Of a DNA stretch of 17,954 bases, positions 15,766-15,861 are shown one piece after another. Numbering within the stretch: the first letter of the stretch is position 1; each line of letters begins with the position of its first letter. This stretch comes from a virus (lineage: Duplodnaviria > Heunggongvirae > Uroviricota > Caudoviricetes): positions 1 through 17,954 of the IMG/VR virus record IMGVR_UViG_2651869691_000012. One strand, given 5' to 3'. The position numbers and the translations under genes were made by a program. Below the pieces are notes generated by a model that made no database searches, was not told the DNA's origin, and saw nothing but the letters and a program-made list of their open reading frames with translations.

Positions 15766-15861
15766 ATTTCTATTTCTATTTCTATTTCTATTTCTATTTC
15801 TATTTCTATTTCTATTTCTATTTCCATTTCCATTTCCATTTCTATTTCTATTTCTATTTCT
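15766..15861. repeat. Hexanucleotide microsatellite: (ATTTCT)9 (ATTTCC)3 (ATTTCT)4, 16 units
   Basis: Counted directly. Perfect 6-bp tandem units with three internal T-to-C variant units. Lies in the divergent intergenic region between the 590-aa gene and the HNH/ninG genes. Confidence 0.95.

Follow-up and report, generated by a model that had tools for sequence, protein, structure and literature searches.

A hexanucleotide repeat in the nin region of a lambdoid prophage is the Escherichia coli typing locus O157-9

The array and its identity

The window, as we call the whole stretch of DNA analysed here (17,954 nucleotides, positions 1 to 17,954 of IMG/VR record IMGVR_UViG_2651869691_000012), includes the nin region of a lambdoid prophage, in which a tandem hexanucleotide array, (ATTTCT)n, lies between a leftward gene for a protein of 590 amino acids (aa) and a rightward HNH endonuclease gene, itself followed rightward by ninG and a Ser/Thr phosphatase gene (Table 1). 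An initial annotation made from the letters alone placed the tract correctly in this divergent region, between the start of the 590-aa gene at 15448 and that of HNH/ninG at 16060, and missed that it is a typing locus: the tract is the known variable-number tandem repeat (VNTR) called O157-9, Vhec4, TR1, or VNTR-9 in typing E. coli that make Shiga toxin (STEC). The finding is real but already known.

The tandem hexamer tract is the one long array that Tandem Repeats Finder reports in the window (period 6, 16.8 copies, 97% matches, score 181, consensus unit TATTTC), and (ATTTCT)4 with at most one mismatch has 10 matches in the window versus 0 in 200 dinucleotide-preserving shuffles. Read directly from 15766 to 15861, the array runs as nine ATTTCT, three ATTTCC, and four ATTTCT units followed by a degenerate ATTTGT; of the "sixteen perfect units" first described, the number is right, but 13 are perfect and three are variants, as the annotation itself conceded.

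The locus is reportedly part of the schemes of Noller 2003, Lindstedt 2003, and Keys 2005, of PulseNet, and of Japanese O157/O26/O111 typing. Its identity with the tract is established, here or in the literature, at the level of unit, name, and primer. The TR1 unit published for the E. coli O157 scheme of multiple-locus VNTR analysis (MLVA) is AAATAG (PMC2246123), the reverse complement of CTATTT, which matches the 6-bp unit of the array; TR1 has been equated with Vhec4 and O157-9 (PMC3768571), and TR1/O157-9 also with VNTR-9 (PMC3321953). One primer of each pair finds an exact site on the HNH side of the array, and the VNTR-9 forward primer matches O157:H7 Sakai too. The second (reverse) primers of the TR1 and VNTR-9 pairs have no match in the window at up to 3 mismatches; both sit in an IS30 fragment in Sakai (L003, 3744-3774 and 3852-3871), and their failure in the window therefore reflects an O157-specific IS30 junction rather than a different locus.

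The homologous region of Sakai is prophage Sp17, where similarity to the window starts at 15751 and remains collinear through the array to ECs3504 (HNH), ninG, the phosphatase gene, and Q, while on the left a truncated IS30 (L003, 3183-3986) abuts the array at a distance of 13 bp. Strain SMN197SH3 (L004, 4100-4954) has the left flank of the window and then, at the same point, the other end of IS30. Taken together, the two junctions reconstruct one insertion of IS30, which duplicated 2 bp (GT) at a site lying 13 bp to the left of the array; the window carries the un-rearranged, presumably ancestral form of the locus. In all O157:H7 genomes the 590-aa gene has been removed by IS30 and deletion, and the array persists and is equally variable. 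Thus the O157-9 locus of O157:H7 and that of the window are alike in their 6-bp unit, right flank, HNH-side primer sites, copy-number range, and position upstream of an HNH endonuclease gene, but differ on the left, where O157:H7 has a truncated IS30 and no 590-aa gene whereas the context in the window is intact.

Other hexanucleotide VNTRs (O157-10/TR2, O157-3, and Salmonella STTR5 and STTR6, the last of them prophage-borne) resemble the array in their 6-bp units and in their use as epidemiological markers, but have other sequences and lie in other places, some of them inside open reading frames (ORFs) to which they add in-frame dipeptides. Literature searches on VNTR-9 in a prophage setting, and on Z3935, Z3936, ECs3504, and ECs3505, returned nothing functional.

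Copy-number variation and slippage

Of 5426 complete E. coli genomes, 524 have the locus, and 245 of these 524, mostly O111, O26, O103, and O145 STEC, retain the full context; it also occurs in the Stx1 phages SH2026Stx1 and AU6Stx1. Lengths between tight flanks, surveyed in an evenly spaced sample of 60 genomes, differ in 6-bp steps and amount to some 5-16 units where the context is intact and some 4-16 units in O157:H7. At the sequence level, 49 extracted loci resolved into 37 distinct intergenic alleles of 4 to 17 units. A single flank haplotype, with GTGG behind the array and TTCTGT as its terminal unit, by itself covers the entire range of 4-17 units, and the unit number must therefore change far faster than point mutations accumulate. 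Three other alleles (L041, L043, and L044) have the variant unit ATTTCC once, the window has it three times running; the tripled unit is a variant copied to its neighbours, the signature of slippage. The T-run to the right of the array, T5, T6, or T7 depending on the allele, is a second slippage-prone tract.

Published work on the locus agrees. German O157 isolates carried 6-23 repeats in 15 alleles with a diversity index of 0.90 (PMC3321953), and median repeat numbers in Japan depend on the clade (PMC10062581). On serial passage the locus mutated at 4.3-4.6e-5 per generation per strain by single-unit insertions, at higher rates in alleles of more than 13 units, a class to which the 16-unit allele of the window belongs; the hexanucleotide VNTRs of enterobacterial typing range from 1e-5 to 1e-3 mutations per generation, longer alleles being less stable (PMC3777172). 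Copy-number polymorphism, slippage signature, and measured instability are thus all matters of observation, here or in the literature, and the suggestion in the initial annotation that unit number is slippage-prone and varies among strains proves correct. The comparison of unit number across strains that it proposed had been made long ago in typing work and, reproduced here, finds the length variable rather than invariant.

A prophage lineage with a 92% identical 590-aa protein and about 10% divergence in the non-coding flanks also has the array, at the same place and in 8.8 and 10.8 copies. We considered that (ATTTCT)n might be a mobile or portable element and rejected the idea: the motif recurs at 68 other places in the viral contig collection, but the flanks are unrelated and the genomes AT-rich, as expected of a generic microsatellite. 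The arrays at these places have 4-20 units and lie in AT-rich contigs, many from giant-virus metagenome bins; several of these viral contigs (L065-L153) have identical flanks, suggesting other VNTR loci.

The acquired module and its genes

GC content falls to 28-40% over approximately 13350-16650, whereas the flanking nin genes are at about 48%. Aligned to the compact ninE-ninF-HNH order found elsewhere, the window has 13218-16042 in place of about 98 bp of ninF (Table 1) and retains of ninF a remnant of three codons (start at 13169, stop at 13178-13180). The module contains one substantial gene, that for the 590-aa protein, together with its upstream region and the VNTR. The HNH gene is present in 538 genomes; in about 14 it belongs to the compact ninE-ninF-HNH-ninG operon, whose genes overlap at their stop and start codons and which lacks the repeat. 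The alignment therefore places the array inside the acquired module and not in the HNH cassette. The 5′ end of the HNH gene contains an imperfect 20-bp tandem duplication (16078-16118; 2 copies, 80% matches), which is also found in the diverged lineage (L042, L043). A contig scan with the HNH protein returned one distant planctomycete match only and was uninformative.

Table 1. Features of the module, the array, and its flanks, in window coordinates.
Feature	Position	Strand	Basis or remark
Low-GC (28-40%) module of 2825 bp replacing about 98 bp inside ninF	13218-16042	none	blastn against the compact ninE-ninF-HNH arrangement; base composition
590-aa gene (PHROG 9230), TTG start behind AGGAGG	13676-15448	-	VNTR 317 bp upstream of the start codon
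57-bp invariant block with candidate -35 TTGACG (15578-15573), candidate -10 TGTAAT (15557-15552), and palindrome TAACTATAGTTA (15586-15597)	15544-15600	-	alignment; position weight matrix (PWM) scan, no score above shuffles
70-aa ORF in whose frame the array is (Ile-Ser)n, not conserved; PGAP label in some genomes "hypothetical protein"	15697-15909	+	allele comparison
97-aa ORF reading the array as (Phe-Leu)n	15707-16000	+	allele comparison
GT dinucleotide duplicated by IS30 insertion in O157:H7; site intact in the window	15751-15752	none	Sakai and SMN197SH3 junctions
Hexanucleotide VNTR (TATTTC/ATTTCT)n	15765-15865	none	Tandem Repeats Finder; shuffle test; published unit and locus names
Three adjacent ATTTCC variant units	15820-15837	none	direct reading; allele comparison
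T6 homopolymer, 8 bp right of the array	15873-15878	none	allele comparison
TR1 primer site ACTGCATGATAAGCCTCAGG, exact match	15938-15957	-	primer from PMC2246123
VNTR-9 forward primer site, exact match, overlapping the HNH start codon	16049-16075	-	primer from PMC3321953
HNH (HNH_3 + AP2-like) endonuclease gene, ATG start behind GGAGG	16060-16626	+	domain matches; annotation; transcribed together with ninG

The 590-aa protein has no match in Pfam, PADLOC, NCBIfam, or the PDB sequences, and among PHROGs matches only families of unknown function; an AlphaFold2 model built from an 18-sequence alignment was unusable (mean pLDDT 39, pTM 0.25). Its N-terminus is rich in Ser, Thr, and Asn, is predicted to be disordered, and contains two copies of LTLNDFLDN, of which the longer Salmonella homologs appear to carry more; long hydrophobic helices follow. 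Homologs are found next to nleF in E. albertii (71% identity), in the Salmonella cdd-sanA islet (48-51%), and in Providencia (50%). At a guess, the protein looks like a secreted effector.

Two blocks of the intergenic region, 15544-15600 and 15964-16023, are invariant in alignments between prophage lineages whose non-coding surroundings have diverged by about 10%. The first holds, on the strand of the 590-aa gene, a candidate -35 and a candidate -10 separated by a spacer of 15 bp, and a palindrome, and judging by its conservation and content is likely the promoter/operator of that gene. Between this candidate promoter and the start codon there is a 15-nt inverted repeat (15493-15507/15529-15543; 93% complementary, 21-nt loop), which may form a 5′-untranslated hairpin of the 590-aa gene. 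The second block holds a small hairpin, GGTATT-gtgga-AATACC, and a consensus terminator scan found one weak terminator-like hairpin at 15916-15932. Promoter scans scored nothing above shuffles: a consensus scan came up with no sigma-70 site between 15449 and 16060, a lower count than in shuffled sequence, and a PWM scan found candidates only at 15550-15620 on the minus strand, none of them above the shuffle median. The array begins 187 bp upstream of the only conserved candidate -35 and overlaps no candidate core promoter.

A probably neutral array, and the rival readings

Our best explanation of the whole, to which we assign a probability of roughly 0.7, is that the tract is a known VNTR, a non-coding, slippage-driven microsatellite in an acquired prophage module, whose length most likely has no selected effect. 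The AT-rich hexamer array is part of a horizontally acquired 2.8-kb module that lambdoid Stx-type prophages of both E. coli and E. albertii carry in their nin region; whole 6-bp units are gained and lost, on the best-supported mechanism, by slipped-strand mispairing during replication; rapid turnover would keep the array pure while its flanks diverge; and its length would most likely be without selected effect on the neighbouring genes. Loops of 6 nt escape MutS-dependent mismatch repair, in keeping with the fact that units of 6 bp predominate in the VNTRs of E. coli. The array is probably without selected function because i) it is about 187 bp from the conserved promoter-like block; ii) homologs of the 590-aa protein (48-71% identity) lack the repeat; iii) the compact HNH operon lacks it as well; iv) no Rfam family matches; v) the ORFs through the array are not conserved; and vi) the same hexamer is found in 68 unrelated AT-rich viral contexts. 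Nothing that we found shows the array to control a gene or encode a peptide.

Several considerations weigh on the other side. The case for neutrality is made up entirely of negative evidence; the array has been retained, at 8.8-10.8 copies, in a lineage with about 10% diverged flanks, and no sampled allele has fewer than 4 units, so that selection for retention could explain its persistence as well as slippage dynamics could; array length sets the spacing of the two invariant blocks; and no other 78-nt stretch of the rightward RNA, over all 17.9 kb, is free of G and fully unstructured. A selected, length-tunable cis-element could act either as a tract without G that loads Rho or insulates, or as a spacer that phases the invariant blocks in 6-bp steps; we consider such an element unlikely.

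The initial annotation suggested that slippage in the tract would alter promoter spacing, a possible contingency switch. Contingency loci are phase-variable simple-sequence repeats, as in Haemophilus and Neisseria, with the TA repeats of the divergent hifA/hifB promoter and the nadA TAAA tract as examples. The tract resembles them in being a hypermutable short intergenic repeat between divergent genes that changes by slippage; but theirs lie in the -35/-10 spacer, or separate the promoter from mapped operators, and are known to affect expression, whereas here about 187 bp stand between the tract and the nearest candidate promoter, no -35 or -10 candidate overlaps it, and its 6-bp unit cannot shift a reading frame. 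Nor does comparison help. No microsatellite is present within 1.2 kb upstream of the 590-aa homologs (71%, 48-51%, and 50% identity), no proto-repeat could be found upstream of the 71% E. albertii homolog, whose nucleotide homology extends only about 55 bp upstream from its start codon, and HNH too does without the tract in its compact operon. The repeat is hypermutable but is no conserved companion of either gene family, which removes the comparative support expected of a contingency locus, and a switch acting through promoter spacing is not supported; a lineage-specific effect of spacing, such as that to an operator, would still fit these results.

In another form of the idea the array would tune or phase the 590-aa gene from a distance, as a rheostat of the contingency type modulating looping, H-NS-type silencing, or activator contact, for which the TAAA tract upstream of the Neisseria nadA promoter is the model; each 6-bp step would turn whatever binds at block 15964-16023 by about 206 degrees relative to block 15544-15600. 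The position of a hypermutable array between two blocks invariant across diverged lineages, in AT-rich acquired DNA upstream of a stand-alone gene, and its retention in both prophage lineages speak for such an element. We nonetheless think it improbable, given the 187 bp to the candidate -35, the position in no core promoter, the want of any promoter candidate above shuffles, the E. albertii, Salmonella, and Providencia homologs that lack an upstream repeat and, with it, homology beyond about 55 bp, the O157:H7 strains that lost the gene and keep an array just as variable, and the want of any known regulator.

The Rho-loading version concerns the rightward (pR-sense) transcript, on which the tract was described as pyrimidine/U-rich, and the composition bears this out: the RNA of the 16-unit allele is 83% pyrimidine, the highest value in the window, with 0% G, about 20% C, and 19 pyrimidine-C (YC) dinucleotides, and its 78 G-free nucleotides have a predicted minimum free energy of 0. 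The 16-unit allele thus has the composition of a Rho-utilization (rut) site (at least 70 nt unstructured, G-poor, C exceeding G, frequent YC), and alleles of 4-5 units (24-30 nt) fall below that length. Polypyrimidine repeats can serve as artificial Rho terminators, and the region is untranslated on that strand if its ORFs are not real; as a rut-like or other pyrimidine-tract site, (AUUUCU)n would limit un-antiterminated transcription from the module into HNH-ninG-Q. However, C makes up only about 20% of a tract that is U-rich rather than C-rich, alleles of 4-5 units are common and yet too short for Rho loading, compact ninF-HNH phages do without the tract, and there is no direct evidence of termination; we therefore judge an RNA element quite unlikely. 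An Rfam scan of 13000-16700 at E<=1 gave only two chance microRNA-family matches far below threshold. An Hfq (ARN)n motif in the leftward RNA, (AGAAAU)n, was also considered and rejected, there being no leftward promoter candidate to the right of the tract.

Translation of the array, as the 70-aa (Ile-Ser)n ORF or as a hydrophobic (Phe-Leu)n micropeptide of variable length, seems very unlikely. The initial annotation kept an Ile-Ser peptide in view on the ground that the ATTTCC variants are synonymous in that frame only, which is so in the allele of the window but not in the others: GTTTCT, CTTTCT, and a TTTTAT-register variant, three of the four variant unit types, are non-synonymous there. 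Although PGAP annotates the Ile-Ser ORF in some genomes, it has no ATG in 9 of the 37 distinct alleles, owing to a 1-bp indel or to the IS30 insertion, and the proposed peptide is not supported. All 37 alleles keep the Phe-Leu frame open behind an upstream ATG, and the variant units TTCTGT and TTTTAT are synonymous in it; but it is open because the repeat has no stop in that frame, and what surrounds it is not conserved. Both the 1-bp indel and IS30 alter its N-terminus; its C-terminus comes in at least five versions, which arise from the T5/T6/T7 run, whose length changes shift the frame of any ORF leaving the array, from a further truncation (L013/L028), and from a CGA>TGA change; and after the array the lineages differ by four non-synonymous changes (including a stop) against one synonymous. 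Neither ORF has a Shine-Dalgarno sequence at usable spacing before its candidate starts or a Pfam or PHROG match, and the supplements of a Ribo-seq study of small genes in Sakai, possibly truncated, have no entry at the site, which is weak evidence in view of the IS30-disrupted context there. Finally, that the array is an assembly or sequencing artefact, mis-assembly being common at simple repeats, has practically no chance of being true and is already refuted by independent records, as 524 complete genomes, and dozens of contigs independent of one another, have the array at the identical position, and the locus has been sized by the polymerase chain reaction for 20 years.

Were the array a length-tunable cis-element after all, it would determine how strongly the effector-like 590-aa gene is expressed, or how much transcription leaks into HNH-ninG-Q and from there to the late and Stx genes; alleles recorded in routine MLVA would then have a phenotype, and a widely used typing allele would predict it. 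So far we find no support for this. As found, and on the preferred reading of a slippage-driven microsatellite, the tract matters little for biology, and its value is that of a strain-typing marker, whose ancestral setting is now seen to be a 2.8-kb acquired module with the 590-aa gene. That setting has a practical consequence. Because both reverse primers (TR1 and VNTR-9) anneal inside IS30, assays designed for O157 span the IS30 junction, and strains with the intact module (mostly non-O157 STEC, and Stx1 phages) would be scored as null despite having the array; VNTR-9 is reported to give 31.7% null alleles, and such null typing may be one source of them.
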